A stretch of 64,000 nucleotides of DNA from a bacterium (GTDB lineage: Bacteria > Patescibacteriota > Minisyncoccia > Phycocordibacterales > CAIZLB01): positions 16,936 through 80,935 of the forward strand of contig JBAXXP010000001.1 in assembly GCA_037127815.1 (NCBI GenBank), in the 5' to 3' direction. Under the pieces are notes generated by a model. It saw nothing but the letters and a program-made list of their open reading frames with translations. It searched no databases and had not been told where the DNA came from. Of the stretch, positions 24,712 to 61,276 are shown one piece after another. Each line of letters begins with the position of its first letter. The stretch's first letter is position 1. The position numbers were made by a program, and so were the translations under genes.

Positions 24712-24745
24712 TTTGGGGTCAGGCACCAGCGTGCCTGACCCCAAA
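24712..24745. repeat. Copy 1 of the GC-rich palindromic repeat family (TTTGGGGTCAGGCAC-cagc-GTGCCTGACCCCAAA)
   Basis: 15-bp perfect arms. It sits between the tandem minus-strand genes 23979-24692 and 24817-25563. Confidence 0.8.
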
Positions 24746-24816
24746 TTAAAAATAGCGCAGCCCAATTCTAGGTCACACTATTTTTATGAAGCAAATAATT
24801 TGTTCAACCCTTCCCC

Positions 24817-25563
24817 CTAGTCTCTTTGTCTCTCCATGTAAACAGATATTGTTCTTCTTTTGTAAGCTTTACCGTCTCTTATATGTTTATAAGATTTAAT
24901 CATCTTATGAATTTTAAAATATGGTGAAAACAATTCTATAATTTCATCATCTGTCCAGACGTGCTCATAAACATCAATTCTAGGATGTATATATGAATTC
25001 AACTCCCCCGCTGGATTTTCCTTAATCAATCTTATTGCATGAGCGTCGGCGTCAAGCACAAATGTTTTTAGAAACGCCCAACCATACGGCTTAACAACTC
25101 TTGCAATTTCTTTAACATAATTTTTACGCTCTTCATCTCTAAGAAAATGACTTGTCATCATGTCTAGGAACATATCAACAGTTCCGTCCTCTGTAGGTAT
25201 TGGATCTGATAGGTCCTGAACATAAAATAGAATTCTTTCTGCTTTAGGGATTTTTGCATCTGGATTCACTTTTGTAACACCCTTCTCTTTTGCCATATCC
25301 TTTGCTTGTGAAATAGCAGTTCCAGAAATATCTATTCCAATACCCCTCATGTTATATTCAGCACAAAGTGGGACGAGATTTCTACCATTTCCGCACCCCG
25401 CATCAACAATTAATCCATTCTTTGGAAAAGGAGGCCACTCTGAGTTTCTGGTCACCCATTTTTCAAAAGTAATTAAATCAGAAGAAGGCTCAGTGGACAT
25501 TGCTAAATGCTCCCCTGTTTTATATTCCTTATTCCAAAACGCTGCTGAATTTTTTTTAGTCAT
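24817..25563 (-). CDS. Class I SAM-dependent methyltransferase
   Basis: 248 aa. SAM-binding motif I LIVDAGCGNGRN and motif II region IGIDISGTAI. Substrate unknown. Confidence 0.7.
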   Translation of the reverse strand: MTKKNSAAFWNKEYKTGEHLAMSTEPSSDLITFEKWVTRNSEWPPFPKNGLIVDAGCGNGRNLVPLCAEYNMRGIGIDISGTAISQAKDMAKEKGVTKVNPDAKIPKAERILFYVQDLSDPIPTEDGTVDMFLDMMTSHFLRDEERKNYVKEIARVVKPYGWAFLKTFVLDADAHAIRLIKENPAGELNSYIHPRIDVYEHVWTDDEIIELFSPYFKIHKMIKSYKHIRDGKAYKRRTISVYMERQRD

Positions 25564-25578
25564 GATATTTGTTTGTTT

Positions 25579-25616
25579 GATTTGGGGTCAGGCACCACGG
25601 TGCCTGACCCCAAATC
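25579..25616. repeat. Copy 2 of the palindromic repeat family (GATTTGGGGTCAGGCACCACGGTGCCTGACCCCAAATC)
   Basis: Near-perfect 18-bp arms. It lies between the MTase start (25563) and the NRAMP stop (25620). Confidence 0.8.
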
Positions 25617-25619
25617 AAA

Positions 25620-27056
25620 CTATGAGAACAAAGCATAGATTGTAGCCAAAGCTGTAACACCCATAAACACTACCGTAACCCACCCAACAACATTAGTCAA
25701 TTTTTTATTTCTATTTTCACCCATCACATCCTTTCTAGAGCTTAATCTAACGATAAAATACAATATTACAGGGGCAACAATACCATTAAGAACGGCAGAG
25801 TAGATTAATGCCTTTATAGGGTCTAAACCAATAAAGTTAAGCCCAATACCCACTATTACAGCAAGTGATATAACTCCATAAAAAGCCCTAGCCTCTTTTA
25901 GCTTCCTATTCAAACCAAACTTCCATCCAAAACTCTCAGATACAGCATATGCTGCTGAGCCTGCAAGAACTGGCACAGCAAGTAGTCCAACACCAATGAT
26001 ACCTATCGTAAACAGCAAATAAGCAAAATCTCCAGCAAAAGGACGAAGTGCAGCAGCAGCATCAGCAGCAGTGCCAATATTCGTTACACCATGTGAAAAT
26101 AGAGTTGCAGAACAAACTGCGATAATAAAAAACATCGCAGCATTTGAAATAAACATTCCCATCCAAATATCTACTCTCATTTTTTTAATATCCTCTGGAG
26201 TAGAAATTGTCATCAATGGTTCCGTCACAACTGATACAAAAGAAGGGTCAGTTAAAGGAACGGTCTCTAAGGTTTGAACATTCTGATTATTTTGTAAATC
26301 TAAAATTCTTTGAGCAAGTTGTTTTTCTTCTATCTCCTGAGAAGTCTGCCAGAAGAATAGATATGGAGAAATTGTTGTTCCTAATATTCCACAAACCAAA
26401 AGTATTTGATCTTTTGTAAAATCAAAATGTGGAACAACAGTATAATATAATACCGCTGACCAATCTATTTGAACAAAGAATGCCGTAATAACATATGAAA
26501 GTAGCACAAGCGCTAAATATTTTAAATACCTAGCATACTTTCCATAGCTCATAAATATTTGCATCAATAGACCACTCACACCAAAGAAAATAACAGTTGG
26601 ACCAAAAGGAAAATAAGGAAAAATTAATTGAAGCGCCTTAGTCATTGCACCAAAGTCTGCACCAATATTGAAAATATTTGCAGCAAGCAATAGAAATGTA
26701 CAAATATAAATAGCAGTTCTTGAATGATACTGTCTTATGTTTGCAGCAAGGCCTTGCCCTGTAATCATACCAATTCTAGCGCACATCTCTTGAACTGTTG
26801 CCATTAAAGGAAAGGTAAAAAGAGAAAGCCAAATTAATTTGAAACTATACTGAGCGCCGGTTTGAGAATATGTAGCAATTCCTGATGGATCATCATCAGA
26901 AGCACCCGTAGTTAGTCCTGGGCCAAGCATACGCCAAAAGTTTTTTGCTTTCTTTTCAACCACAACAGCTTCATGGCCTGCAGCTCTTACCCCCTCTCCT
27001 GCTACATGAATAGTTTTTCCAATTACATGACCAGTTGCATGTAAGGCATCTTTCAT
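25620..27056 (-). CDS. NRAMP-family divalent metal (Mn2+/Fe2+) transporter-like membrane protein
   Basis: LGPGLTTGASDDDPSGIATYSQTGAQY corresponds to the Nramp GPG...DPGN metal-binding TM1 motif, and ATVQEMCARIG to TM6. The start is taken at MKDALH, since the track ORF (ending 27140) has 28 implausible extra residues. Confidence 0.65.
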   Translation of the reverse strand: MKDALHATGHVIGKTIHVAGEGVRAAGHEAVVVEKKAKNFWRMLGPGLTTGASDDDPSGIATYSQTGAQYSFKLIWLSLFTFPLMATVQEMCARIGMITGQGLAANIRQYHSRTAIYICTFLLLAANIFNIGADFGAMTKALQLIFPYFPFGPTVIFFGVSGLLMQIFMSYGKYARYLKYLALVLLSYVITAFFVQIDWSAVLYYTVVPHFDFTKDQILLVCGILGTTISPYLFFWQTSQEIEEKQLAQRILDLQNNQNVQTLETVPLTDPSFVSVVTEPLMTISTPEDIKKMRVDIWMGMFISNAAMFFIIAVCSATLFSHGVTNIGTAADAAAALRPFAGDFAYLLFTIGIIGVGLLAVPVLAGSAAYAVSESFGWKFGLNRKLKEARAFYGVISLAVIVGIGLNFIGLDPIKALIYSAVLNGIVAPVILYFIVRLSSRKDVMGENRNKKLTNVVGWVTVVFMGVTALATIYALFS

Positions 27057-27239
27057 TCTATGTACATCATTTTGTTCATCATTATTCACAACAATATTAT
27101 ACACTATTAGATATTTTTTGAACAAGCAGTTATAATACATATGTAGCCTAAAATGAAATTTTTCTGAATATTAGACGTAATAATCATTATGAAGGCTAAA
27201 GGTGACAGCTTTCTGTTTTAACTAAACATAAATATAAAT

Positions 27240-28133
27240 ATGAATATAAAAAAAATATCATTAGTAACGTCTAGCCTTGCATTAGTTGCAAGTATGATGA
27301 TAGCCTCTTCATCTTCTGCAGACAGCATTACTAATACTAGACCCCAAGGAATGACGGGTCGAGGCGTGGCGCCTTATGGCGTAAACAAAAACGCAGTAAG
27401 ACCTGTAGCTATGGGGGCAGTTACATCCATTAATGGATCAACAATTACAATCGCAGGACGTCAGGTATCATTTAGTGAAAGAAGTAGCTCATCAACTCCA
27501 TCGTCAGCAGTAGTAACCTATACTGTTGATGCAACAAACGCTGTTGTAACTAAAGGAAACGCTTCAAGCACAGTTTCAAGTATTGTAGTTGGAGATAACA
27601 TTGTTGTTATGGGTACCGTAAGTGGAACAAACATTGTTGCCACAACAATTTTTAATAGTGTAAGAGGTCCGGCAAATGGACAAGGTAAAGAGCTGCAAAA
27701 CAGCGGTCAAGATAGTAGACAAAACGGTGGACAAAAAACTGGAAATAGAAATCCAAGAAACGGAACCTCAACGCAACCAGGAATTATTGGTAATGGGCAG
27801 CCGGTTGTGGCGGGAAAAATTGTCACTATAAATTCAAACTCTATCACAATTACAACCTCTGGTAATCTTACATATACAATCGATGTAGCAAACGCAAAAA
27901 TTACACTAGGGCAGGCCATCAGTGATATATCAAAACTAACTATTGGAGATATGGTTGTTGTTCAGGGTACAATAAACGGATCATCTGTTACAGCTTCAAC
28001 AATAATGGATAGAGGAAATTCTAATGGGCCATCCGGAACAGCAACAGGCTCTGCAAACACAAATCCTACTAATGGTGTAAAGGGATTTTTTGGTGGAGTA
28101 GGACAATTCTTCATGCACATGTTTGGATTCTAA
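27240..28133 (+). CDS. Secreted Thr/Ser/Gly/Asn-rich protein with two internal ~60-aa repeats
   Basis: Signal peptide MNIKKISLVTSSLALVASMMIASSSSA. The repeats TYTVDATNAVVTKGNASSTVSSIVVGDNIVVMGTVSGTNIVATTIF and TYTIDVANAKITLGQAISDISKLTIGDMVVVQGTINGSSVTASTIM align. Confidence 0.5.
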   Translation: MNIKKISLVTSSLALVASMMIASSSSADSITNTRPQGMTGRGVAPYGVNKNAVRPVAMGAVTSINGSTITIAGRQVSFSERSSSSTPSSAVVTYTVDATNAVVTKGNASSTVSSIVVGDNIVVMGTVSGTNIVATTIFNSVRGPANGQGKELQNSGQDSRQNGGQKTGNRNPRNGTSTQPGIIGNGQPVVAGKIVTINSNSITITTSGNLTYTIDVANAKITLGQAISDISKLTIGDMVVVQGTINGSSVTASTIMDRGNSNGPSGTATGSANTNPTNGVKGFFGGVGQFFMHMFGF

Positions 28134-28156
28134 TCTAAATTTTTATCGATTAAATA

Positions 28157-28185
28157 AAAAAGGACCGCATTCTGCGGTCCTTTTT
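28157..28185. terminator. Rho-independent terminator (GGACCGCA-ttc-TGCGGTCC + TTTTTTT), bidirectional between convergent genes
   Basis: AAAAAGGACCGCATTCTGCGGTCCTTTTTTTAAT, 8-bp perfect stem. Confidence 0.55.
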
Positions 28186-28818
28186 TTAATTCTTATTCCT
28201 ATTTACCCACCAAGCATCATCCTTATCACCAAACCACCAATGATCAGATTCTATATTTAATATTTTCTCTGCCAAGTCTTTTGCTTCATCCGTCTTTAGT
28301 CTACTTATTGTAGATTTAACCCAAGTCCTTGCTCTCTCATTACCAATATCAATTTGCTCTTTTAGTGAAATTAAAAATTCTAGATTATCTGCATCTTTTG
28401 CAAGCTGTGATTCATATGTAGTTCTTTCATGATATTCATGCAACAACTCCCCTATTTTATTTCCAAACGGCAATGAATCAACCAAATCTTTTTCAGCCTT
28501 CTCCTCTAGTCTTTCTGTATATTTTTGATGAACATAATTTAAATCAGAAATTCTAGATTCTGTTATGTCGTGGAATTGACACATTTGAACGATTCTTCCA
28601 ACATCAACTTTTCCATTTATGTGACCTAGGCAAAATCCAATATAAACAACTCTGTTAATATGTTCAGCAACACTTTGTTGTCCGCTGCCCAAAAACGCAG
28701 ACCAACTACGAGGTGTTTTTGCTAAGATTCCAACTTCATATAAGAAGTCTACTACGGGGTCCACTGAATTCTCTGGAATGTTAGTTATGATGTTTTTCAT
28801 ATAATTAGATACTAGCAT
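28186..28818 (-). CDS. HD-domain phosphohydrolase (YfbR-like 5'-deoxynucleotidase family)
   Basis: 210 aa. H...HD...D metal-ligand pattern (AEHINRV, QFHDITE, LAKDADNLE). Confidence 0.65.
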   Translation of the reverse strand: MLVSNYMKNIITNIPENSVDPVVDFLYEVGILAKTPRSWSAFLGSGQQSVAEHINRVVYIGFCLGHINGKVDVGRIVQMCQFHDITESRISDLNYVHQKYTERLEEKAEKDLVDSLPFGNKIGELLHEYHERTTYESQLAKDADNLEFLISLKEQIDIGNERARTWVKSTISRLKTDEAKDLAEKILNIESDHWWFGDKDDAWWVNRNKN

Positions 28819-28917
28819 ATCTGAGCCAAATTTGTGTACTGCTCCAAATTTTTAACTTCTATATTACGCTCCTAACACAGCCCTCATGTTCCAGAATTTT
28901 AGCAGAAATAAAAAACC

Positions 28918-28955
28918 TCTGGGTCACATATAATGTGCCCCAGAGGGTGTTTGAG
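28918..28955 (-). terminator. Hairpin (CCTCTGGG-tcacatataatgtgc-CCCAGAGG) followed by a T-run on the minus strand, downstream of 28984-29283
   Basis: The stem has one G.U pair. AAATAAAAAA on the plus strand gives TTTTTTATTT after the stem on the minus strand. Confidence 0.4.
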
Positions 28956-28983
28956 AATAGAATCATATTGTAATGATTGGTAA

Positions 28984-29283
28984 TCACCAGCCAAACGGGT
29001 TAGCGTATGGATTGTAGTATGGTTCCACGTAGTGTCCACGGTAGTAGCCACGGCGGCCATAGCCACCGTACGGAACAGTCGGACGGTTCATGGAATTGTT
29101 GAGGACAGCACCCCCTACCGCAGCAGCAGCAACACCCAATGCGGCCATTCCGACAGCATTGCCCATCTTGGCATTAGCTTCAGTTTGGCGAGCGCGCTGT
29201 TCGGGAGTACCACTTGGCATGGCGCAGTTTGTGAAAACAAGCGACACCATCGTAACGACAACAGTCAACAGTTTAGTTTTCAT
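28984..29283 (-). CDS. Small exported protein with a glycine-zipper segment and a Tyr/Gly/Arg/Pro-rich C-terminal tail
   Basis: Signal peptide MKTKLLTVVVTMVSLVFTNC, GMAALGVAAAAVGGAV glycine zipper, then PYGGYGRRGYYRGHYVEPYYNPYANPFGW. Confidence 0.5.
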   Translation of the reverse strand: MKTKLLTVVVTMVSLVFTNCAMPSGTPEQRARQTEANAKMGNAVGMAALGVAAAAVGGAVLNNSMNRPTVPYGGYGRRGYYRGHYVEPYYNPYANPFGW

Positions 29284-29346
29284 TTGTTCTGATTCTGGTT
29301 TTGGTTTTCTGACATCAGGAAAGGAGTATTCCTCCGGTCCTCACTA

Positions 29347-29374
29347 ATGCTATTCCTATCATATTTTTTGTCAA
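29347..29374 (-). promoter_or_regulatory. Sigma70-like promoter (minus strand: TTGACA-16nt-TAGCAT) for the 28984-29283 gene. A near-identical copy precedes the next paralog
   Basis: Minus-strand sequence CATTGACAAAAAATATGATAGGAATAGCATTAG. The same TTGACA-N16-TAGCATTA architecture and GAATAGCATTA block recur at 29872-29899. Confidence 0.5.
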
Positions 29375-29377
29375 TGA

Positions 29378-29791
29378 TCATCTATTGTTATGACCGTGTC
29401 CACCTTGGTGTTGATTGCCCCCAAAGTTTTGGTGCTGACCATATCCACCTCCTCTTCCTGGCGTGTTGTATACACCACGGTTGTAACTACCGTTGTAACC
29501 ACTATATCCATGATTACCGCCAACACTGTGACCGTAACCACTTGTATATCCACGATCTCCATAACTTGATCCGTAGTTATGGTTATCGTAACGATTATAG
29601 TATCCACCTCCGCGATAATAATTACGATATGGTTCGTACCCATAATACTGGGGACTTTCCACAATCACCTCCTCGACATACCCAGGTGTGTATGCTTGAC
29701 TGCTATAATCAATCATCGGCACACAACTCGTCAAAAGAAATGCTGGTGGAGCAAGGACAAGTAATGCTGTAAGAAACAATTTTGCATTCAT
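29378..29791 (-). CDS. Lipoprotein with a Gly/Tyr/Arg/Asn-rich low-complexity C-terminal region
   Basis: Lipobox LLTSC after the signal peptide MNAKLFLTALLVLAPPAFLLTSC. The tail is YYGYEPYRNYYRGGGYYNRYDNHNYGSSYGDRGYTSGYGHSVGGNHGYSGYNGSYNRG.... Confidence 0.5.
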   Translation of the reverse strand: MNAKLFLTALLVLAPPAFLLTSCVPMIDYSSQAYTPGYVEEVIVESPQYYGYEPYRNYYRGGGYYNRYDNHNYGSSYGDRGYTSGYGHSVGGNHGYSGYNGSYNRGVYNTPGRGGGYGQHQNFGGNQHQGGHGHNNR

Positions 29792-29871
29792 ATTCTTTGT
29801 GATTCTAGGGTTCTGTATTTTAGTTCAGGGTTCTGATGCAAGGAATCGATAACATCTTCACATCTGTCTTA

Positions 29872-29899
29872 ATGCTATTCTTCTCGTGATTTTTGTCAA
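29872..29899 (-). promoter_or_regulatory. Sigma70-like promoter (minus strand TTGACA-16nt-TAGCAT) for lipoprotein gene 29378-29791
   Basis: Minus-strand CATTGACAAAAATCACGAGAAGAATAGCATTAAG. Duplicate of the element at 29347-29374. Confidence 0.5.
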
Positions 29900-29961
29900 T
29901 GCAGAAAAATAATCACAAAAAAAAGAGCCCTATTGCTAGGACTCTTTTTATTGTTTCTTTG

Positions 29962-30033
29962 CGCGGCTGATGGGTGCTGACCCCACGGCCTCTCCCGTGA
30001 CAGGGGAGTGCTCTACCGTTGAGCTACAGCCGC
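29962..30033 (-). tRNA. tRNA-Asp (anticodon GUC). CCA not encoded. Unusual T-loop (GTCAGCA)
   Basis: GCGGCTGTAGCTCAACGGTAGAGCACTCCCCTGTCACGGGAGAGGCCGTGGGGTCAGCACCCATCAGCCGCG. The anticodon loop CTGTCAC matches E. coli tRNA-Asp, and the discriminator is G. Confidence 0.7.
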
Positions 30034-30632
30034 ATTTTCATGAATCCTTCGAAAATAAGCTTTTTTCTGTCCAGATAAAGCTTACTCGTCGTATTATACA
30101 TGATTTTATAAATTTTCAAAGAGTCTCGGGTACTATACTGTAATCTACTATAATTTCCACTTCTAAGGTTAAATAAACTTCCACCGTCCAAACCTAAAGA
30201 ATTAAGCATATTAAATAGATTATTTAAGAACATTTTACTAGCAGAAGTAAAGGCTACAAACATCACGGATGTTGGTTTTTTTCTTGTTTTATTAGTATGC
30301 CCTACCCAGATATTTCCATCCCCATCAAAATACCCTCTAATAAAATCTCCTTCATATTTTTTTGGAATGGTAGGAATATCCATTCTTAATGACTTATTTG
30401 GGGTAAGTCCAAGGAGTACAAGGTCATTAAACATTTCTTTGCTTCCAATTTGGACCCTATATACAGACCCCGTTTCTGATTTTATTTCAGATATTTTATG
30501 TGGTAATTTCATTACTTCAGCAATAGAAATAAGAAGTTCCCTGTCAGCCGTATAGAAAGAGATAAAATGAGTATTTCTTTTAGTTTTAATTATGTTACCA
30601 TCTGCAAATAAAAAACCTAAAATATAAGCCAT
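30024..30632 (-). CDS. Free-standing double-motif LAGLIDADG homing endonuclease
   Basis: 202 aa. Motif 1 LGFLFADGNI and motif 2 IRGYFDGDGNI are spaced about 100 aa apart, typical of monomeric two-domain LAGLIDADG enzymes. The 3' end overlaps the first ~10 nt of tRNA-Asp. Confidence 0.8.
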   Translation of the reverse strand: MAYILGFLFADGNIIKTKRNTHFISFYTADRELLISIAEVMKLPHKISEIKSETGSVYRVQIGSKEMFNDLVLLGLTPNKSLRMDIPTIPKKYEGDFIRGYFDGDGNIWVGHTNKTRKKPTSVMFVAFTSASKMFLNNLFNMLNSLGLDGGSLFNLRSGNYSRLQYSTRDSLKIYKIMYNTTSKLYLDRKKLIFEGFMKMRL

Positions 30633-30740
30633 GTTAGGCGACCATTTTTTGAAAAAGTTGTTGTTGTTAATTTTAAATACTGGAGTGGTATTATTATATA
30701 TTCGAAAAAATTAATGACAATTGCGAACATTAAAAAAGTG

Positions 30741-30814
30741 TGTCGACGGGAGGGATCGAACCTCCGACCTTGGGCTTATGAGTCCCACGCTCTAACCAAC
30801 TGAGCTACGTCGAC
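30741..30814 (-). tRNA. tRNA-Met (anticodon CAU), elongator-type or tRNA-Ile2-type (G1-C72 paired). CCA not encoded
   Basis: GTCGACGTAGCTCAGTTGGTTAGAGCGTGGGACTCATAAGCCCAAGGTCGGAGGTTCGATCCCTCCCGTCGACA. Anticodon loop CTCATAA. Confidence 0.75.
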
Positions 30815-30941
30815 GTACAGACACTATAATACAAAAACACCTAATTTTCAAGCTTTATAGAAGGCTCTATTTTATGCATTTTTTACGATTAATATCTACC
30901 CAGCAAAAAAGCCCCTATTAGGAGCTTTTTTTTTTAAATTG

Positions 30942-31012
30942 TTGCGGAGTCCGGAATTGCACCGGATCTACAAGGTTATGAGCCTCGCGTGCGACTGTAA
31001 CACTCCCCCGCA
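30942..31012 (-). tRNA. Atypical tRNA-like gene with a CAU anticodon loop. The D-loop lacks GG and the T-loop is TGCAATT
   Basis: TGCGGGGGAGTGTTACAGTCGCACGCGAGGCTCATAACCTTGTAGATCCGGTGCAATTCCGGACTCCGCAA folds into a cloverleaf with a 7-bp acceptor stem (U1-A72, one G.U) and anticodon loop CTCATAA. The D and T loops are non-canonical. Confidence 0.4.
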
Positions 31013-31120
31013 ATTTGTATCTATATCAAATATGAATACCTTCGTACTATATAACATATTGTAATAAAAGACAATCCTTTTCAGGTTTTAGTCTAAAATA
31101 CCAAATAGCAATAAGTCAGC

Positions 31121-31903: not shown

Positions 31904-32024
31904 TGTATTGTAATTCTATCATACTAGATGAGCAAAGAGAAAGACTAATTAGAATATGTACAAATTTTCGATTAAATTCCCCACCAACATACAGTATTAC
32001 TGCCTAAAGTAGAATTAGTTTCCC

Positions 32025-33314: not shown

Positions 33315-33379
33315 ACTTATATTATACAGCTTTATCGAAAAAAATCGACAACATAACGCCAAATACAATCAAACAATGA

Positions 33380-34885: not shown

Positions 34886-34893
34886 ATTTTTTG

Positions 34894-34926
34894 TTGGGGT
34901 CAGGCACCATGGTGCCTGACCCCAAA
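34894..34926. repeat. Copy 3 of the palindromic repeat family (TTGGGGTCAGGCACCATGGTGCCTGACCCCAAA), intercistronic between gatC and gatA
   Basis: Perfect palindrome with a CATG centre. It occupies essentially the whole 44-nt gatC-gatA spacer. Confidence 0.8.
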
Positions 34927-34929
34927 TCG

Positions 34930-38091: not shown

Positions 38092-38164
38092 TTAACACAA
38101 TTTAAGCACGGGGTCAGTCACGACGGCACTCAAACACCCAATAGTCATACATAGTCCTAAATCA

Positions 38165-52407: not shown

Positions 52408-52428
52408 GGATTTTTCACAATCAACTTG

Positions 52429-52459
52429 GCCGCTTTGCGTTTTACGCAAAGCGGCCATT
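52429..52459. terminator. Terminator hairpin (TGGCCGCTTTGCG-tttta-CGCAAAGCGGCCA) after lysC
   Basis: 13-bp perfect stem, then T-rich ATTCTTTTGTTT on the plus strand. It lies between convergent genes. Confidence 0.55.
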
Positions 52460-52469
52460 CTTTTGTTTA

Positions 52470-52898: not shown

Positions 52899-52900
52899 TT

Positions 52901-52992: not shown

Positions 52993-53031
52993 AACATCAT
53001 TAAGATAGCACAAAATAGAGTATTTTACTAC

Positions 53032-53364: not shown

Positions 53365-53383
53365 TAGACTAAAAAATTAAAAT

Positions 53384-53626: not shown

Positions 53627-53629
53627 CTT

Positions 53630-53665
53630 ATTTGGGGTCAGGCACCATGGTGCCTGACCCCAAAT
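53630..53665. repeat. Copy 4 of the palindromic repeat family (ATTTGGGGTCAGGCACCATGGTGCCTGACCCCAAAT)
   Basis: Perfect 36-nt palindrome between the grx stop (53626) and the ung stop (53667). Confidence 0.8.
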
Positions 53666-53666
53666 A

Positions 53667-54347: not shown

Positions 54348-54427
54348 TAGCTGTATTATAGGTAAAAAGGCAAAAAATTCAAATAAGTTTGAAATATCTC
54401 AAAAATAAGATATACTGCCACATACAA

Positions 54428-54514
54428 GGAGGATTGGATGAGCGGCTTAAATCAACAGTTTACTAAACTGTCGGCTTGGAAACAGGCCCGTGAGTTCGAA
54501 TCTCACATCCTCCG
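54428..54514 (+). tRNA. Type II (Ser-like, long variable arm, G73) tRNA with apparent anticodon ACU. CCA not encoded
   Basis: GGAGGATTGGATGAGCGGCTTAAATCAACAGTTTACTAAACTGTCGGCTTGGAAACAGGCCCGTGAGTTCGAATCTCACATCCTCCG. The anticodon stem ACAGT/ACTGT gives loop TTACTAA. The loop differs from the tRNA-Ser(GCU) loop TTGCTAA only by G34A. Confidence 0.6.
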
Positions 54515-54657
54515 CAAAATAATGGGCATAGCCCATATATTTTGCGAGAGTGCAGAATAGGTTGCGAAGCGACCGTAATTCTGCCTCCGCAAGTCATATT
54601 ACCCTTAAAATTTGACACCCTCTGTATCTTTGTTAAACTATAGGTACAAATAGACTT

Positions 54658-54782
54658 TTAGTCGCAACCCCAAGCTTTTCCAAGAAGCTTGGGGATTAAA
54701 TTTACAACATTTTCTATAATCTTATTATATTCAGAAGTATTTAGCCTACCCATTCTTAAGCCTAATCTTTTTGCATCATATA
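54658..54782 (-). pseudogene. 3' fragment (~41 codons) of a third MazF/PemK-like paralog
   Basis: The minus-strand frame reads ...LYDAKRLGLRMGRLNTSEYNKIIENVVNLIPKLLGKAWGCD*. This aligns with the C-terminus of 56296-56712 (LYDSRRLGPRIGKLDKIGYNDVIKNIVNFIPKPLVETWGSD*). Similarity stops upstream of LYD and there is no start codon. Confidence 0.5.
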
Positions 54783-54807
54783 GCGCGGCAGAGACACCTG
54801 AAAAATA

Positions 54808-54868
54808 AAAAACCCACCCAATAGCTGACCCCTAGGCCTAAAACTATTGTGTGGGTTATTTTTATGTC
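54808..54868 (-). terminator. Long imperfect hairpin (AACCCACCCAATAG ... CTATTGTGTGGGTT) flanked by A/T runs, downstream of 54881-55159
   Basis: 12-bp stem with one mismatch and a 19-nt loop, preceded by AAAAAA and followed by ATTTTTAT. Confidence 0.3.
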
Positions 54869-54880
54869 AACCTTCCCCAA

Positions 54881-55159
54881 CTAGCGAGTCAACACTCCAG
54901 TCCGATGAAACCAATTCAATAGCATTGCTGTTAACCATCCAACCACATACCCAACAATGAATGTAAATATAATCAAAGTCAGAGCGATACTAAATGAAAA
55001 TGGCTGTACCTGAAATGGATTGTTAACAAAATGTAATCCAAATATCCAATCCATATAAATCTGGGCCCATCCGATAAGCACAAAAAGACTCCAACATAAG
55101 TGAAATCCTCCCATTATACTTCCTGTAGCTAGACCTACTTTATTTTTATTAAGATTCAT
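54881..55159 (-). CDS. Small hypothetical membrane protein (3 predicted transmembrane helices)
   Basis: 92 aa, hydrophobic and Trp-rich. No recognised motif. Confidence 0.35.
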   Translation of the reverse strand: MNLNKNKVGLATGSIMGGFHLCWSLFVLIGWAQIYMDWIFGLHFVNNPFQVQPFSFSIALTLIIFTFIVGYVVGWLTAMLLNWFHRTGVLTR

Positions 55160-55164
55160 GAGTG

Positions 55165-55587
55165 TTATTTATTAAGTTTTATTTTTACTGATTTCTCCTT
55201 TGACCCCTCAACAACGGGCATCGTAACCACAAGTACACCATCCTTATATTCCGCTTCTGTCTTAGAAGAATCTACAGCTTTTGGTAGTCTTACAGATCGA
55301 GAAAAGGAACCCCTCTTTATCTCCTTACTGTAGTAATCCTTTTTATCAACCTCCTTTTCTTCCTCCCTGCTGCCAGAAATTGTTAACATGTCATCCTCCA
55401 GTGAAATATCAAGTTCGTCAGACTTAATTCCAGGCAAGCTCATTTTTGCAATAACTTTATCTTTTTCTTCGTAAATATCGACAGCAAGATCCATACCCAA
55501 TTTAGGCATAACCGGAAAAGATGGGAAAATGCGATCATCAAAAAATTTATCTACCTCACCAAATGGTTCCCATTTAATTATTTGCAT
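55165..55587 (-). CDS. Small heat-shock protein, Hsp20/alpha-crystallin family
   Basis: Alpha-crystallin-domain pattern (MDLAVDIYEEKDKVIAKMSLPGIKSDELDISLEDDMLTISGSR...GSFSRSVRLP...AEYKDGVLVVTMP). The start is taken at MQIIKWEPF, since the track ORF extends to 55641. Confidence 0.8.
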   Translation of the reverse strand: MQIIKWEPFGEVDKFFDDRIFPSFPVMPKLGMDLAVDIYEEKDKVIAKMSLPGIKSDELDISLEDDMLTISGSREEEKEVDKKDYYSKEIKRGSFSRSVRLPKAVDSSKTEAEYKDGVLVVTMPVVEGSKEKSVKIKLNK

Positions 55588-55707
55588 AATATTAATTATT
55601 TTAATCGTTCCACTAATATAATATACTATCGCTCTAGGCAATTGATGATCGACCTATATATGGTAATTATCTCGCACTGCAAAAAAAAAGCAAACTATGC
55701 ATAAATA

Positions 55708-56241
55708 ATGTATAGTTTAAATATGAAAAAATTGCTTTATACAGAAGCTGGGCCAAATGGAACTGCATACAAAAAAGGAGAATGGGAGAAGTTTGCCATA
55801 CACAATGAAAATGAAATAAAGGGCTTTTTTGGCGAATACAGATTTCTGAGTAATTTCTGGCCAGCAAAAGTATTTCTAGATAATGTAGAGTATTCAAGCG
55901 TAGAACTTGCATATCAGGCGGCAAAATGGAAACCTGAGTCCAGACAATTTTTCTCTACATGTACAGAATTAGATTCAATAGATTTCAATAGACAAAATAT
56001 ACCAGATGGATACCCTACAGCTATATGGGATTCAATAAAACTATCTATAATGGAAGATTTAGTTAAGCAAAAATTTGACCCAAAAATTAATCCTGAGAAT
56101 TATCAAAAACTCCAATCTACAAACAACAAACATCTTGAAGAAATGAATTGGTGGGGTGACATATTTTGGGGAACAACAGAAAATGGAGATGGAGAAAATA
56201 ATCTCGGTAAACTACTAATGGCAGTACGCAAAAATATCTAA
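55708..56241 (+). CDS. NADAR-domain protein (YbiA/DUF1768 family; N-glycosidase / ADP-ribose-processing superfamily)
   Basis: FFGEYRFLSNFWPAKV, YSSVELAYQAAKW, WWGDIFWG and NNLGKLLMAVR match NADAR conserved blocks. The start may be MKKLLY (55723). Confidence 0.7.
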   Translation: MYSLNMKKLLYTEAGPNGTAYKKGEWEKFAIHNENEIKGFFGEYRFLSNFWPAKVFLDNVEYSSVELAYQAAKWKPESRQFFSTCTELDSIDFNRQNIPDGYPTAIWDSIKLSIMEDLVKQKFDPKINPENYQKLQSTNNKHLEEMNWWGDIFWGTTENGDGENNLGKLLMAVRKNI

Positions 56242-56295
56242 CTGTGTATTTGACATCCTTGTTTGATTTGATAGAATTCAAATACAAATCGACGC

Positions 56296-56712
56296 TTAGT
56301 CGCTACCCCAAGTCTCCACCAGAGGCTTGGGGATAAAATTTACTATATTTTTAATAACATCGTTATACCCTATTTTATCCAGCTTTCCAATTCTAGGACC
56401 TAGCCTTCTACTATCATAAAGCCTTATATGAGAAATCATTACTGATCTAGTCACTGATTTTAATTGGACTTTAATATAATACTTATTATCCTTATTTTGA
56501 CTAGTCAAAGGAATACCCAAAAATAAATTTCTATTAAACTTTTTAAACACCAAAACGGGTCGTGAAAAAGTATCGCTTTTCCCGTTCTCTTCATCACCTA
56601 TGTTTACTCCAATTGAACACCAAAAAACATCCCTTTCTTTAATTGAAGGAAATCTTAATCTGACATCTAAACCACTCTTTTTCACAGACCATTTTTCGAA
56701 GTCTTTTTCCAC
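56296..56712 (-). CDS. MazF/PemK-like endoribonuclease-fold protein (toxin-like), solitary; paralog of 22256-22675
   Basis: 138 aa. DVFWCSIGVNIGDEENGKSDTFSRPVLVFKKFNRNLFLGIPLTSQNKDNKYYIKV. The C-terminal codons (IPKPLVETWG) are encoded by the inverted repeat CCCCAAG...CTTGGGG at 56307-56332. No antitoxin-like neighbour. Confidence 0.55.
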   Translation of the reverse strand: MEKDFEKWSVKKSGLDVRLRFPSIKERDVFWCSIGVNIGDEENGKSDTFSRPVLVFKKFNRNLFLGIPLTSQNKDNKYYIKVQLKSVTRSVMISHIRLYDSRRLGPRIGKLDKIGYNDVIKNIVNFIPKPLVETWGSD

Positions 56713-56783
56713 TAATTAATTTTAGCAAAATCACATGAGTTTTTGATAAATAAATTCTAAAGAAAAACGAAACAAAATAATTA

Positions 56784-57188
56784 CTAGGAAAGCTTGGATG
56801 TACAGAAAGCACACCTTGTTGCCTCTTTTGGAATCTCACTCAAACATTCCGGGCATTCCTTCTTTTTTGGTTCCAACTTTTTCAAATCGCGCTTAGCTCT
56901 TGCGATTAATATATTTATTGGAGTTAGAACAAAAAAATAAACAGAGAAAACGATTATGAAAAATGACATTAGTGAATTTATGAAGTCTCCAACCATAAAT
57001 TTACTGTCGTTGATTGTAAAGAAGATGCTTGAAAAATCAGGAGACTTAACCACAGCCCCAATCAAAGGAGTAATCAAGTCCTTAACAATAGCTTCCACAA
57101 TCTTACTGAAAGCAGCTCCAACAGCAACTCCAACTGCCAAAGTAATCATGTTATCTCTTAATATAAATTCTTTAAATCCTTTTATCAT
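56784..57188 (-). CDS. mscL: Large-conductance mechanosensitive channel MscL with a C-terminal CxxC...CxxC zinc-ribbon tail
   Basis: N-terminal FKEFILRDNMITLAVGVAVGAAFSKIVEAIVKDLITPLIG is the MscL TM1 signature. The C-terminus is KKECPECLSEIPKEATRCAFCTSKL. Confidence 0.75.
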   Translation of the reverse strand: MIKGFKEFILRDNMITLAVGVAVGAAFSKIVEAIVKDLITPLIGAVVKSPDFSSIFFTINDSKFMVGDFINSLMSFFIIVFSVYFFVLTPINILIARAKRDLKKLEPKKKECPECLSEIPKEATRCAFCTSKLS

Positions 57189-57262
57189 ATTTTTTTATTA
57201 TATTCCTATTCTATCCTTAAACAGAATAACGTCAACTTTTAGCTCCCTATTATTTGCAGATA

Positions 57263-57706
57263 TTAATTGAAATCTACTTCAAATCTATACATTCCCATTC
57301 CACATGTTCCATTTAGTATACCGGCAGCTTGGCTTCCAACATCAATATCCGTTGAACCAGTTTGTGGTAATATTTGATTAACATTCAAACTTGCAATTCT
57401 TATAGACGAGGAGCAATCAAATGTACCTCTAGTTTTGAATCTTATACTAGTTGGAATACCAGCCTTAGCTATACTCTTACTAGGATTATATCCACCCCTA
57501 ACATCAATTTCAATAATTTGCTTTCCATCTACCACCGTGACATTACTCGCGTTACTATCTGTTTCTCCTGTTCCATTCACACCCCCAGTAATTCCAGACG
57601 CCCCATTGTTTCCACTCGATGAAACTATGAATGCCACTATAATTAAAAGTAAGGCAAATATTACTGCTGCTATGGTTGTTTTCATATATTGTGTTTTATC
57701 GGACAT
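57263..57706 (-). CDS. Membrane-anchored exported protein with a Cys/Met-rich cupredoxin-like C-terminal domain (putative copper-binding)
   Basis: N-terminal transmembrane helix and a Gly/Ser/Asn/Thr linker. The domain EIDVRGGYNP...FDCSSSI...GTCGMGMYRFEV resembles Cupredoxin_1-like proteins found in copper operons. Tentative. Confidence 0.35.
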   Translation of the reverse strand: MSDKTQYMKTTIAAVIFALLLIIVAFIVSSSGNNGASGITGGVNGTGETDSNASNVTVVDGKQIIEIDVRGGYNPSKSIAKAGIPTSIRFKTRGTFDCSSSIRIASLNVNQILPQTGSTDIDVGSQAAGILNGTCGMGMYRFEVDFN

Positions 57707-57711
57707 AAAGA

Positions 57712-58839
57712 TTAAAAATTAAAGATTGGTGAAATAAACCCAATCGCCACCAAGCTATTTATTAAATTGAAGATAGCAAACATAATTACAATAAGACCAG
57801 CCGTCTTAAAGAATATCCCCTGTTTTGTGCTATTTTTTATACTAAATGAACTAAAGCTAATAAGTGCGAGAACTGGAAGCGTACCTAACGCAAAGGAAAG
57901 CATTGTTAAGGTACCGCCCATAAAACTACCTGTTGTTAAACTATATAATTGCATTGACTGAGTAAATCCACAAGGTAAAAAGAAAGTTGCAATACCTACG
58001 AGTAATGGAGTTAAGGTGTGATTTAATTTTGATACGCCGTGCGCTCTCTGTGAAATAAATCTTGGCATCCCCGGTTGTAGTTTTTTAGCCCAAGGAAAAA
58101 CATCGAGCAAATTTATACCTAAGATGAACATTACAACGGCTATCAATATTCCGAGAATAAATGTTGCATAAGCACTTAATGTAAATGCACTTCCTACAGC
58201 ACCAATTACTCCACCCAAAATAAAGAACGATATCAAACGCCCTCCATGAAACATTATTTGAGGTTTAATTCTATCTCCTTCTTTTGCAAAAGTAGCAGAC
58301 ATTGAAAGTAATAGACCACCAACAACTGCCATACATGATGAAAGTGATGCAATTATTCCGACTACAAACGATGTACCATATGTCACATTTCCTCCGCCAA
58401 CAAGATTTATAAGGCCAACTTTTTGAAGTAGTAAAAATAAAATTAGAAAACCAAGTGCGACAGGACCTGCGATTTTAAAATCAGACCATTTTGAAACGCT
58501 TGCTCCTTTTGTGTGCTGAGAATTCAGAACACCTCCATCTTTAGACCCAAACACTTCTTTATGTTCCTCTCCAGAAGAAATTTTATATCCATGCTTTTCT
58601 ACAAGTAACGACAACTCTTTTGCAATATCTTCCTCACTCTTACCTTTGAAATTTCCAATCACTTCAACACATCCCCCACCTAAATTTGCTACAGCTTTTT
58701 CCACCATTGCATGATCATTTAATTCAGTTTCAGTTAGAAGTACACAGGCGTTACAATGCATTCCCTTGATAAAGAATTTATATTTTTTAGACCCATCTAT
58801 TTCTTCCTGCATTCTACCCGTATTATTTTGATTATGCAT
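57712..58839 (-). CDS. Heavy-metal-associated (HMA) domain fused to a DsbD_2/CcdA-like thiol-disulfide transmembrane domain
   Basis: N-terminal FFIKGMHCNAC metal-binding motif. The membrane domain has Cys-containing helices (LSSCMAVVGG; FFLPCGFTQ) like the CcdA/DsbD transmembrane region. Confidence 0.5.
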   Translation of the reverse strand: MHNQNNTGRMQEEIDGSKKYKFFIKGMHCNACVLLTETELNDHAMVEKAVANLGGGCVEVIGNFKGKSEEDIAKELSLLVEKHGYKISSGEEHKEVFGSKDGGVLNSQHTKGASVSKWSDFKIAGPVALGFLILFLLLQKVGLINLVGGGNVTYGTSFVVGIIASLSSCMAVVGGLLLSMSATFAKEGDRIKPQIMFHGGRLISFFILGGVIGAVGSAFTLSAYATFILGILIAVVMFILGINLLDVFPWAKKLQPGMPRFISQRAHGVSKLNHTLTPLLVGIATFFLPCGFTQSMQLYSLTTGSFMGGTLTMLSFALGTLPVLALISFSSFSIKNSTKQGIFFKTAGLIVIMFAIFNLINSLVAIGFISPIFNF

Positions 58840-58840
58840 A

Positions 58841-61198
58841 TTATTTTAATTTTTTAGTTTCAAGTCTTAGTGAGTTTGTCACAACAGAAACACTACTTCC
58901 GGCCATTGCCAATCCTGCGAAAACGGGATTCAGAGTTATACCCCATATTGGATACAGTAACCCAGCAGCTACAGGAATTCCAATTATATTATAAATAAAT
59001 GCCCAGAAAAGATTTTGCTTTATTGTTCTCATTGTAGTTTGAGAAAGATCAAACGCCTGTGACAGTTTATTTAAGTCCCCATGTAAAAGCGTAATGCCAG
59101 ATGACTCAATAGCAACATCAGTTCCTGTAGCCATAGCGATTCCAACATCAGCTTGAACCAAAGCCGGAGCATCATTAATTCCGTCTCCCACCATTGCTAC
59201 TTTTTTACCTTCTGCCTGAAGCTCTTTAATTTTTCCAGCCTTCTCAGCAGGTAATACTTCTGAAATCACATTATCGATATTTGCTTGCTTGGCAATATAC
59301 ATTGCTGCCAAATGATTATCTCCGGTAAGCATCACTACTTTGATTCCACGCTTATGAAGTTTTGAAATCGCCTCCACTGACTCTTCTTTTAGAGTATCGC
59401 TAAGTGCAATTAATCCAATTTTTTGCGAATCAATCTCCACAATAACCACGGTCTTACCTTGTTCTTGTAATTCTTTTATCTTTTCGATTTCTTGCCCTCT
59501 ACCAACATGACTTATCTCATTTAAATTTGGTTTGTGAACATAAATAATTTTCCCCTCACCTTCTCCTCTCACACCAACTCCTTCAAGTGCAATAAAATTT
59601 TCTATCTTAATAAGAGTAATATTTTTTTCAATTGATTTATTAACGATAGCTTCAGCAAGAGGGTGTTCTGAAAGTTTTTCAACACTGGCTGCAAATTGCA
59701 AAATATGATCATCGCTGAATTCCTCATGCAAAATAATAACATCAGTTACTTCTGGCTTTCCTTTTGTAATTGTTCCTGTCTTATCAAGTACCACCGTATC
59801 AACATTACTTAATTTCTCAAGAGCCTCAGCATCCTTAATCAGGATTCCGTATTCAGCCCCCTTCCCAACCCCAACAATGATTGCTGTTGGAGTTGCAAGT
59901 CCTAGGGCACATGGGCAAGCAATAACTAATATTCCAACAAAAGCTAAAATTCCAAAAGAAAGTGCCGACGAGAAACCAAGAAACATTGTTCCAACAGTTA
60001 GCCATACAGCAAGAGTGAGTATTGATACACCAAGAACAATAGGAACAAATACTGCAGATATTTTATCAGCAAGCGCTTGTATGGGTGCTTTGGAGCCCTG
60101 TGCCTCCTCTACCATTCTAATAATTTGTGACAAAAGTGTGTCTGCGCCAACTTTTGTGGCAATAAATTTAAAATTACCTTGTTTGTTAATCGTTGCACCA
60201 ACAACCAAATCTCCAACTTTTTTTTCAGCAGGAATAGACTCCCCAGTAATCATAGATTCATCTACGCTAGACACACCTTCAATTATTTTCCCATCAACTG
60301 GAATTTTTGCTCCGGGTTTCACGATAACGATATCTCCAATCTGCACTTCATTTATAGATACTTCAACTTCAATTCCATCTTTTAAGACAAGAGCTATCTT
60401 TGCCTGCAGTCCAATTAATTTTTCTATTGCCTCTCCTGTTTGAAGTTTAGATTTTGCTTCAAGATATTTTCCAAATATTACAAAACCAATTACAACAATC
60501 GTAACATCAAAATATGTATATTCTGGAAGTTGCAACGCAAAAGCGGCTTGAGGAAATAGAGTTATAAAAATACTGTAAATGTATGCAGTTAATGTTCCAA
60601 TACCAATAAGCGTATCCATATTTGCAACCCTGTATTTTATGAATCTAATAACCCCTTGCAGGAATGGTTGTCCAATCCAAAAAAGAACTATTGTTCCAAG
60701 TATCATTGTAATTGAATTAAACAATGACATTGAAATAGGTACCTCTGAAATGTACGATGAAAGCAAAGTCTTCATCAAGATATTCCACACCATGACAATA
60801 AATACTAAAATAGCCACGGGCAAAACAAACCAAATTTTATACCTCATCTCTGACAGCTCCTTATTTTTTTCTTCTTTTGATTGTCCAATACCTGTGTGAA
60901 CACGATGTTCCTCCTCACTCATATTCTCCATACCTGGTCCCATACCATGATCTTCTACACGACTCATACCGTGAATTGCACTTTCATTTTCACCACTAAG
61001 TGTATAGCCGAGTTTTTCTATTTCATTATTCATTCTTTCTATTGATGTTTTTTCTGGATCAAATTCAACTACCGCTTTTTCAGTTGCAATGTTAACATTG
61101 ACGTCCCCCACCCCATCTAATGTACCAATCTTTTTTGAAATTATTGCAGCACAACTAGCGCAATGCATACCTTTGATTTTTAATATTTGTTTTCTCAT
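58841..61198 (-). CDS. copA: Copper-translocating P1B-type ATPase
   Basis: 785 aa. N-terminal HMA domain (GMHCASC), transmembrane CPC motif ([11 protein letters not shown]), phosphorylation motif DKTGTIT, and GDGINDAP. Confidence 0.9.
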
Positions 61199-61221
61199 GT
61201 TTATATATAGTGAATTTTGAA

Positions 61222-61276
61222 TTTTGGGGTCAGGCGATTTTGGTCGTAGACCTAAGTCGTGTGCCTGACCCCAAAA
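61222..61276. repeat. Copy 5 (variant with 27-nt insert in the loop) of the palindromic repeat family, intercistronic between csoR and copA
   Basis: TTTTGGGGTCAGGC-[gattttggtcgtagacctaagtcgtgt]-GCCTGACCCCAAAA. It lies between the csoR stop (61280) and the copA start (61198). Confidence 0.7.

Follow-up and report, generated by a model that had tools for sequence, protein, structure and literature searches.

The closest described counterparts of the repeats reported here are the REP, BIME and REPIN elements of Enterobacteria and Pseudomonas, which are likewise short GC-rich extragenic palindromes present in many near-identical copies. REPs stabilize upstream mRNA, and those lying within ~15 nt of a stop codon reduce translation via ribosome stalling. 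In REP/REPIN-RAYT systems, a single-copy RAYT gene of the Y1/HUH kind is itself flanked by REPs. DNA uptake sequences (DUS/USS) also occur in inverted pairs 3' of genes in Neisseria and Pasteurellaceae, and are plentiful as single copies, many of them within genes, at roughly 1 per kb. Patescibacteria (CPR) genomes are regarded as streamlined and as carrying few repeats and little non-coding sequence of regulatory function, and our search of the literature turned up no account of REPs in Patescibacteria.

We analysed a 64,000-nt stretch of one such genome (the window, which here means this entire stretch) together with 10 kb on either side. All five palindromes that the original prediction had placed in the window were recovered from the sequence, each matching the consensus TTTGGGGTCAGGCACC-N2-4-GGTGCCTGACCCCAAA, and a sixth that it had missed was found at 2751-2803. 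Two forms can be distinguished: a short form, which is a perfect palindrome with 15-22-bp arms and a 2-4-nt loop, and a long form with an insert between the arms. The copies and the one putative remnant are as follows (labels c1 to c6 are used below).

2751 to 2803, minus strand: c6, long form, with the minus-strand sequence TTTGGGGTCAGGC-GATTCTGGTCGAAGACCTGAATCGTGT-GTCTGACCGCAAA, 2 mismatches in the arms and a predicted energy of -28.4 kcal/mol; it starts 2 nt past the stop codon of DHO_dh (2806-3747, minus strand).
24712 to 24745: c1, short form, 15-nt arms and the 4-nt loop CAGC, between two minus-strand genes, following the methyltransferase (MTase) stop by 72 nt and preceding the TMEM175 start by 20 nt.
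25575 to 25620: c2, short form, perfect 22-nt arms, -40.1 kcal/mol, filling the Nramp/MTase spacer, with a stop codon 6 nt before it and a start codon 18 nt after it.
34893 to 34926: c3, short form, with 16-nt arms at 34894-34925, 4 nt from the gatC stop and 8 nt from the gatA start.
38106 to 38128: probable decayed half-copy upstream of the ligA start, GGGGTCAGTCAC (opposite strand GTGACTGACCCC).
53629 to 53666: c4, short form, 19-nt arms, making up nearly all of the spacer between the convergent glutaredoxin (Grx, plus strand) and UDG (minus strand) genes.
61222 to 61276, plus strand: c5, long form, 14-nt arms enclosing the 27-nt insert GATTTTGGTCGTAGACCTAAGTCGTGT, between CsoR and CopA; the CsoR stop is 3 nt away when counted from the 14-nt arms, or 5 nt when counted from the 12-nt core, and CopA starts at a distance of 23-25 nt.

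The 13-mer GGGGTCAGGCACC matches 10 half-sites in the window with at most 2 mismatches, compared with 0.30 expected from shuffles, and none of 100 shuffles attained 10 matches; across all of our counts, 10-12 half-sites were observed against 0.3-1.2 expected. The same genome holds two further long-form copies (locus L169; L numbers denote compared loci), 0.2 and 1.85 kb past the left end of the window, bringing the total to 8 copies and 1 remnant in ~84 kb, all intergenic, and metagenomes of the same lake contain additional copies on other low-GC contigs. The motif is thus neither absent elsewhere nor restricted to convergent gene pairs, in keeping with the original prediction, as the family continues outside the window and sits in operons. 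Identical sequences occur in independent JGI, ENA and NCBI assemblies, and therefore the palindromes are not an assembly artefact. The 13 nt of the arm are invariant across the short copies, with a variable loop. The 27-nt loop insertion noted earlier in the 61222-61276 copy is real, and the same insert is common to all four long-form copies, including c6, a similarity that structure alone would not demand. The estimate of 70-80% GC holds for the core (71%) but not for the whole element, which with its T/A ends reaches ~59% against ~36.5% for the window. The open reading frames beginning (M/L)GSGTMVPDP are, as had been suggested, translations of the repeat.

Pfam identifies the flanking genes as TMEM175, SAM-MTase, Nramp, GatC, GatA, glutaredoxin, UDG, CsoR and CopA, which bears out the placement of copies inside gatC/gatA, Nramp/MTase and CsoR/CopA. 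The element starts 2-9 nt past a stop codon for 5 of the 6 window copies and for copies in L055, L057, L066 and L169. T-runs precede the stem and A-runs follow it, so that the flanks are inverted (TTT...AAA; GTTTGA...TCAAAC), and neither a shared flanking motif nor a target-site duplication is visible at the copies. A MITE was considered and rejected, since none of the copies is bordered by direct repeats, their flanks are inverted and the short-form arms are only 2-4 nt apart. The copy c1 is located directly upstream of a conserved promoter-like motif, TGnTAAAAT...ATG.

Comparison with related species indicates how the copies arose. The gatC/gatA junction has no palindrome in any of five syntenic relatives (74-84% GatA identity), whose spacers range from as short as 3-8 nt up to 111 nt of unrelated AT-rich sequence, and the GatA N-terminus is conserved among them. 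At Nramp/MTase, c2 is missing from three relatives (L132, L133 and L166) and also from L016, a strain variant that is otherwise identical to the window (one SNP over ~19 kb; 99% overall); the L016 tract without c2 looks like an imported allele rather than an excision. The relatives carry a DUF305 gene at the CsoR/CopA position of c5, and in the relative L165 UDG and Grx are separated by two extra genes. A profile search of six related species (~109 kb) found no full copy. The relative L132 nevertheless keeps the right arm of c1, TGCCTGACCCCA, at the orthologous position, with 12 nt of the arm retained despite saturated neutral divergence. Because no relative has a full copy and one of them holds a half-site at the orthologous position, the copies have a common descent and arose by insertion: they are shown to be homologous and to have been inserted or copied in after the split from the sampled relatives, landing in intergenic spacers that were originally only a few nucleotides long. 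The possible degenerate copy at 38106-38128 is absent from L132, L133 and L134, and this lineage-specific sequence probably represents a decayed half-element, as proposed. Apart from the L016 tract, the copies are fixed across every assembly of the species, and ongoing movement was not seen.

The predicted hairpins are very stable (-28 to -40 kcal/mol; z-scores -4 to -10). The inner hairpin of the long form is imperfect, with a T.T mismatch that is conserved, and is followed by an unpaired GTGT; the long form shows 4 compensatory pairs, pairing of the inner helix reaches 100% in each of the four copies, and the arms decay while the inner hairpin is kept. Compensatory changes within a palindrome can, however, come from template switching without selection. 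In an Rfam search only tRNAs attained the gathering score, and the copies gave generic hairpin matches far under threshold.

A GC-rich stem-loop 3' of a stop codon is also found in intrinsic (Rho-independent) terminators, and the original prediction had described two of the copies as convergent-gene terminators. Only c4 turned out to lie between convergent genes, and none of the copies has a 3' U-tract; the polarity is in fact reversed (TTT-stem-AAA). Classic A-tract/stem/T-tract terminators are present in the same window, at 7075-7114, 8970-9002, 28156-28186 and 29915-29954, each with a unique sequence, whereas the palindromes repeat one sequence at many loci and some of them lie within obligately co-transcribed pairs. 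A terminator scan of positions 20-40 kb flagged none of the copies there. Moreover, c3 ends 8 nt before gatA and leaves no space for a gatA promoter. Taken together, the lack of a U-tract, the ordinary terminators in the same genome and the reading of gatA through a copy mean that the copies are not canonical terminators. It could still be argued that they are sequence-conserved, U-tract-less (I-shaped) bidirectional terminators or attenuators with partial read-through in operons. Each copy places a stable GC-rich stem-loop right after a stop codon, c4 alone separates Grx from the convergent UDG gene, with the same arrangement at the convergent YceG/CDPS pair of L055, and a different U-tract-less GC palindrome occupies the convergent junction at 17379-17415. 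We regard this as improbable, given that the copies at gatC/gatA and Nramp/MTase, unlike c4, are internal rather than at transcription-unit ends and that the shared loop and insert sequences, together with the absence in relatives, favour copying over convergent selection. These observations support a homologous dispersed family of extragenic palindromes rather than terminators that arose independently. Still less probable, in our view, is that the palindromes are double-stranded DNA sites for a dimeric sequence-specific protein (nucleoid, segregation or regulatory) or for a pilus-linked DNA-uptake receptor, the latter as paired DNA uptake sequences like those in Neisseria terminators. The invariant arm and variable loop of the short copies would suit such a protein, and identical arms at the old L132 half-site could mean that selection has kept a protein-binding sequence, rather than that the element spread recently; several adjoining genes have metal-related functions (Nramp, TPMT-like MTase, CsoR/CopA and Grx/ArsR), and all the genes of a type IV pilus set are present in the window, a feature shared with DUS/USS carriers along with a 10-13-nt motif in inverted pairs. 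Unlike DUS/USS, however, every half-site in the 84 kb belongs to a palindrome, with no single and no coding copies, and the density is only ~1 palindrome per 10 kb. The sites are found 3' of genes or between convergent genes and not at promoters, the neighbouring genes overall (gatCA, DHO_dh, dUTPase, YceG, AddA-like helicase and S16) have no common function, and it is the arms that decay in the long form while the inner hairpin persists.

The likeness to REP/BIME elements that had been proposed therefore has to be qualified, and the roles suggested along with it, as mRNA stabilisers, RNase sites and transposition targets, are putative. What stands is a dispersed family of short extragenic palindromes with many near-identical copies in ~84 kb, which, like REPs, occupy 3' untranslated and intercistronic spacers (also within operons), are lineage-specific and missing at the orthologous sites of relatives, lack target-site duplications and would form stable mRNA hairpins, here predicted. 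E. coli REPs are imperfect hairpins, with a mismatch bulge required for TnpA-REP binding and a conserved 5' GTAG (PMC3479197). In contrast, the short form here is perfect, has a 2-4-nt loop and lacks GTAG; a conserved mismatch, T.T, occurs only in the inner hairpin of the long form, whose GTGT lies 3' of that hairpin, on the wrong side and with the wrong sequence for a GTAG (GTRG) foot. The RAYT that the original prediction had envisaged did not appear: Pfam calls for all genes revealed no transposase of any kind in the window and the 10 kb on either side, and no Y1/RAYT homologue was found in 1.38 Mb of compared loci except in the relative L167. Because no RAYT, GTAG foot or imperfect short-form stem was found in the DNA covered, membership of the REP-RAYT family is not demonstrated, and the best reading of these features is a REP-like family in the broad sense.

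The hairpin ends of IS200 elements and the IS200/IS605-derived palindrome-associated elements (PATEs) offer a second comparison. They share with the family hairpin recognition (proposed here) and the lack of target-site duplication, and the imperfect inner hairpin of the long form adjoins a conserved unpaired tetranucleotide, GTGT, as at IS200/IS605 ends. The short form differs from IS200-type elements in having no left-end/right-end asymmetry, and a cognate TnpA was not found in the DNA examined. In L167, GC-rich hairpins flank an IS200-type TnpA gene, but they differ in sequence from the window palindromes; Y1 machinery is thus present in the clade, an observation that we counted in favour of a Y1 enzyme.

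On balance, we assign a probability of roughly 0.6 to a lineage-specific and broadly REP-like family of miniature palindromic repeats in a single species of uncultured, Paceibacteria-like Patescibacteria. Against it weigh the lack of a transposase in the window and its 10-kb flanks, the lack of visible target-site duplications and the fixation of the copies. Such a family would spread at the DNA level via its hairpin by means of a trans-acting enzyme encoded outside the window, with an IS200/RAYT-type Y1/HUH transposase as the obvious candidate, and template switching inside the palindrome may maintain the perfect arms. Each inserted copy would set a very stable predicted hairpin 2-9 nt past the upstream stop codon. 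Without a U-tract, this hairpin is probably inefficient as an intrinsic terminator and more likely serves as a 3'-exonuclease barrier or an RNase III-type processing site. Translation of neighbouring cistrons would also become uncoupled, and ribosomes would be slowed at the stop codon.

On this reading, a proliferating palindrome is tolerated inside essential, normally translationally coupled pairs such as gatC-gatA, where a 32-nt hairpin stands in place of a spacer that is 3-8 nt in several relatives. As a natural marker, the family may reveal how the genome of an uncultured lineage has changed recently, its copies are candidate mRNA processing or stability signals in CPR-type organisms, and it gives reason to seek a hairpin-specific (Y1/HUH-type) enzyme in CPR genomes.

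The 13-mer itself recurs in distant phyla. It is doubtful, although conceivable, that GGGGTCAGGCACC is a cross-phylum recognition motif, with one widespread and possibly horizontally transferred sequence-specific factor making or using all three repeat sets described here, and it seems similarly unlikely that it is a cross-phylum building block of extragenic repeats just past stop codons. If so, it would point to a new and widespread sequence-specific factor, for example an HUH enzyme that recognizes hairpins or a protein that binds or processes RNA, or alternatively to element transfer between a CPR episymbiont and its hosts; if the recurrence is due to chance, the palindromes are an ordinary REP-like family in an unusual host. 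Against a shared motif, the searches themselves fixed 12-13 nt and only 3 further nucleotides match unforced (1 in 64), and terabase-scale databases are expected to contain several repeat families sharing any GC-rich 12-mer. We found no shared neighbour gene or transposase and no viral or plasmid carrier, and a control on viral contigs gave only a weak excess (~6 independent matches versus 2). On the other side, GTDB representatives contain ~11 independent exact 13-mer palindromes, compared with a crude expectation of 0.3-1.3, and GGGGTCAGGCACC forms multi-copy paired palindromes in a 70%-GC actinomycete MAG. It also occurs in tandem-plus-inverted arrays with an 18-19-nt period on ~40 high-GC soil contigs that are Gemmatimonadota-like (67% GC hosts; neighbouring proteins closest to Gemmatimonadaceae), and in ~20 of 34 of these arrays the first unit begins 2-14 nt past a stop codon.

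The palindromes form a real repeat family, larger than the five copies of the original prediction. With up to two mismatches allowed, the 13-mer arm GGGGTCAGGCACC matches the window 10 times, against 0.30 expected from dinucleotide-preserving shuffles, and reading of the sequence confirms all five palindromes at their predicted positions; that count was nevertheless too low, as a sixth copy at 2751-2803 had been overlooked. Two forms occur, a short one, which is a perfect palindrome with a 2-4-nt loop, and a long one, in which the arms enclose a 27-nt insert.

Copies of the palindrome family in the window and its left flank (L169 is a locus of the same genome that covers the left flank)
2751-2803: long form, the sixth window copy
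24712-24745: short form, between two minus-strand genes (MTase and TMEM175)
25579-25616: short form, extending to 25575-25620 with perfect 22-nt arms, between Nramp and MTase
34894-34926: short form, between gatC and gatA
38106-38128: apparent decayed half-copy
53630-53665: short form, between the convergent Grx and UDG genes
61222-61276: long form, between CsoR and CopA
L169:11662-11716 and L169:13321-13373: decayed long forms, about 0.2 and 1.85 kb past the left end of the window

The insertion described for the 61222 copy is confirmed, and the same insert, GATTYTGGTCGWAGACCTRARTCGTGT, recurs in the 2751-2803 copy. The sequence at 38106-38128, put forward as a possible degenerate copy, does resemble a decayed half-copy and is extra DNA particular to the window lineage. 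The family thus amounts to eight copies and one remnant in about 84 kb (the window plus 10 kb on each side); the 10 kb to the right of the window holds no further copy, and a profile derived from ten copies of the short form matched nothing more within the window. The window has no other dispersed non-coding repeat family, and the ORFs beginning (M/L)GSGTMVPDP are translations of this one, as had been proposed. Because independent JGI, ENA and NCBI assemblies contain identical palindrome sequences, the palindromes are not assembly artefacts. Short-form copies with identical arms are also present on other 36%-GC contigs from the same lake metagenomes, beside the housekeeping genes YceG, dUTPase, an AddA-like helicase and S16. 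The host is an uncultured Patescibacteria (CPR) bacterium: its GatA and CopA homologues carry the names Parcubacteria, Pacebacteria or Paceibacterota, and the window, at about 36.5% GC, is densely packed with genes and includes a type IV pilus cluster. Contigs of this species reach 413 kb. Pfam identified the genes neighbouring the palindromes as TMEM175, SAM-methyltransferase (MTase), Nramp, GatC, GatA, glutaredoxin (Grx), UDG, CsoR and CopA.

All copies are predicted to fold stably (-28 to -40 kcal/mol, z-scores -4 to -10), and an Rfam search of the palindromes matched no family. All four long-form copies pair the inner 9-bp helix, which has two compensatory changes and a conserved T.T mismatch, with GTGT left unpaired; three copies are decaying in the outer arms, where two more compensatory pairs occur. 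The resulting total of four is reached by 5 of 500 shuffles, and either selection or template switching inside the palindrome could have produced the changes. As the long form lies in the sense orientation relative to genes twice and in the antisense orientation twice, a strand-specific RNA role of its asymmetric part is argued against. The insert shared by the four long-form copies is not demanded by hairpin formation alone, which indicates that the copies are related by descent.

Comparison with relatives points to copying and insertion. The gatC-gatA junction is free of the palindrome in all five syntenic relatives (L132, L133, L134, L166 and L167; GatA identity 74-84%), where the spacer measures 3 nt (L133), 8 nt (L134 and L167), 68 nt (L166) or 111 nt (L132), the two longest being AT-rich and unrelated. 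The C-terminus encoded upstream and the N-terminus encoded downstream are unaltered, which places the element precisely within the spacer. The Nramp-MTase spacer likewise has no palindrome in L132, L133, L166 or the strain variant L016, and six related species, sampled over about 109 kb, contain no full copy. At the MTase-TMEM175 junction, L132 retains TGCCTGACCCCA precisely at the position of the window's right arm; at least one site therefore predates the L132 split, or else the same site was struck twice. Two further junctions differ in gene content: relatives have CsoR-DUF305-CopA where the window lacks DUF305 and carries a long form instead (61199-61279 compared with L165:9400-10000), and UDG and Grx, separated by bPH_2 and TPR genes in the related locus L165, are adjacent in the window with a palindrome between them. 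Neither a target-site duplication nor a common flanking motif is visible at the copies.

The MTase gene lies between two copies, and we considered whether it might be a mobile cassette; this was rejected because relatives without the palindromes conserve the Nramp-MTase-TMEM175 synteny. The strain variant L016 is identical to the window over about 19 kb and then enters a tract of about 73% identity (L016:19240-19958, corresponding to window 25737-24927) that covers the 3' part of Nramp, the spacer and MTase. Its spacer contains CAAAAGTCGGG twice and no palindrome, and resembles that of L133; CAAAAGTCGGG forms no family in the window. From its sequence the tract looks like a recent within-species recombination import, and the palindromes do not mark it, since the divergence starts about 120 nt inside Nramp.

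Two copies had been taken for terminators of convergent genes; only the 53630 copy is in fact convergent, the 24712 copy being flanked by two minus-strand genes. Nor do the palindromes have the make-up of ordinary terminators. T lies before the stem and A after it, with no U-tract, a terminator scan of 20-40 kb listed none of the copies, and classic A-tract/stem/T-tract terminators of unique sequence occur elsewhere in the same window (7075-7114, 8970-9002, 28156-28186 and 29915-29954). In addition, gatA, with its conserved N-terminus, starts 8 nt past a copy, so it must be transcribed through the hairpin. The copy between Grx and UDG may still act as a barrier. Most copies begin 2-9 nt past a stop codon, in part a consequence of how short the original spacers were. 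E. coli REPs are hairpins that guard upstream mRNA against 3' exonucleases, and by analogy the window hairpins might shield upstream transcripts in the same way. Those with perfect 19-22-bp stems may in addition be RNase III substrates, and a hairpin less than about 15 nt from a stop codon could hinder terminating ribosomes. The gap between gatC and gatA in relatives is a mere 3-8 nt, a hint of translational coupling, and any coupling of this kind would be broken by an inserted hairpin.

The nearest kind among known repeats is REP/BIME/REPIN, and the proposed resemblance is broadly right as regards behaviour. Membership of the REP-RAYT family is unproven: the 5' GTAG of RAYT-linked REPs was not found in the window palindromes, the short form does not have the imperfect bulged hairpin that characterizes REP-RAYT elements (PMC3479197), and no cognate RAYT gene was found in the window, its flanks or the other loci examined. 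Uptake sequences (DUS/USS) were rejected, as the window palindromes include no single or intragenic copies, and so was a MITE, as target-site duplication and internal segment are both missing; the palindromes also do not match the sequences of the sigma-54 promoter, parS, dif, CIRCE, the CsoR operator or integron attC. A search of the literature for the motif and for REP/RAYT in CPR bacteria found no description of such elements in this group.

No transposase is encoded in the window or its flanks, and a RAYT search with an approximate E. coli YafM query, which is weak evidence, plus an HUH/Y-motif regular expression had no match outside L167 in the 1.38 Mb of loci searched. This locus, from a related species with 79% identical GatA, encodes a 151-aa IS200-type Y1 transposase (L167:3441-4060; NF033573, 128 bits) between a pilin gene and a prepilin peptidase gene, flanked by GC-rich hairpins of its own (AAAGCCGTCC-GGCA-GGACGGCTTT and CCACCGGAC-CTTA-GTCCGGTGG). 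Hairpin-based transposition machinery thus occurs in the clade; tblastn with this TnpA returned nothing beyond L167.

The 13-mer also recurs in other phyla, which raises the question of whether these repeats are genuinely linked. A metagenome scan constrained solely by TTGGGGTCAGGC...GCCTGACCCCAA gave more than 111 loci of 35-74% GC. At least about 40 high-GC (0.63-0.68) soil or rhizosphere contigs carry arrays of exact GGGGTCAGGCACC with 5-6-nt spacers and an 18-19-nt period, comprising up to seven direct units followed by inverted units and usually beginning 2-14 nt past a stop codon (L029:760-898, L127:515-653, L062:4113-4214, L120:15-104 and 3652-3762, L060:320-471 and about 35 other loci in L021-L130); the best named homologues of a protein beside one array are from Gemmatimonadaceae. 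Two contigs of the 70%-GC actinomycete MAG MFD08447.bin.2.10 (L001:3649-3734 and L003:6898-6981) carry tandem pairs of GGGGTCAGGCACC-TGC-GGTGCCTGACCCC with the flanks GGATCGACAGC in common, so the palindrome is a multi-copy family there. The same exact 13-mer in both settings favours a link, as do about 11 independent single exact palindromes in other phyla among GTDB representatives, which exclude the window's own genome, against a crude expectation of 0.3-1.3. However, most of the match was imposed by the search patterns themselves, and terabase-scale databases should contain several families sharing any given GC-rich 12-mer. Viral contigs contain neither the full 13-mer palindrome nor a tandem 13-mer; 12-mer arms gave zero for the real motif and zero for controls, a pattern without power, and 10-mer arms gave 22 loci, about six independent, against two for a shuffled arm, a weak control. 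On balance, we consider a genuine cross-phylum link unlikely.

Other palindromic elements were seen alongside. On L078, a 44%-GC contig, a composite palindromic element about 300 nt long occurs twice (2050-2400 and 3500-3700); it has several nested inverted repeats around a centre TTGGGGTCAGGCATGCAT...ATGCATGCCTGACCCCAA and represents another multi-copy family with only the 12-mer in common. In the window, two further palindromes (17379-17415 and 52427-52457), perfect, GC-rich and each of unique sequence, sit where convergent genes meet. The former (GCAATGCCCCGGCGCCA...) has no T-tract, and its arms GCAATGCC...GGCATTGC equal the inner hairpin of Gemmatimonadota-like composites (L096, L111, L120), which may be coincidence.

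The motif TGnTAAAATAATTACATG, which includes an extended -10-like box, is conserved right at the TMEM175 start (window 24693-24712, minus strand; L132:20075-20097; L133:20572-20590); the position of that box 6 nt ahead of the ATG points to a leaderless mRNA. Upstream of ligA there is a similar TTAAA..TGTTAAACTG motif, and a common 32-nt promoter-like repeat (19715-19746 and 21103-21134; minus strand, TTGTAA-N16-TATAAT) is found upstream of the FtsX-like and ABC ATPase genes, both on the minus strand. ARAGORN called a tRNA-Ser whose anticodon, ACT, is unusual (54428-54515, plus strand) and a second tRNA-Met (30941-31012, minus strand), neither at the gathering score of the Rfam tRNA model. Finally, an ORF that weakly matches LAGLIDADG_3 (30024-30632, minus strand) overlaps the tRNA-Asp gene by about 10 nt and is kept at the same place in L132, L133 and L166.
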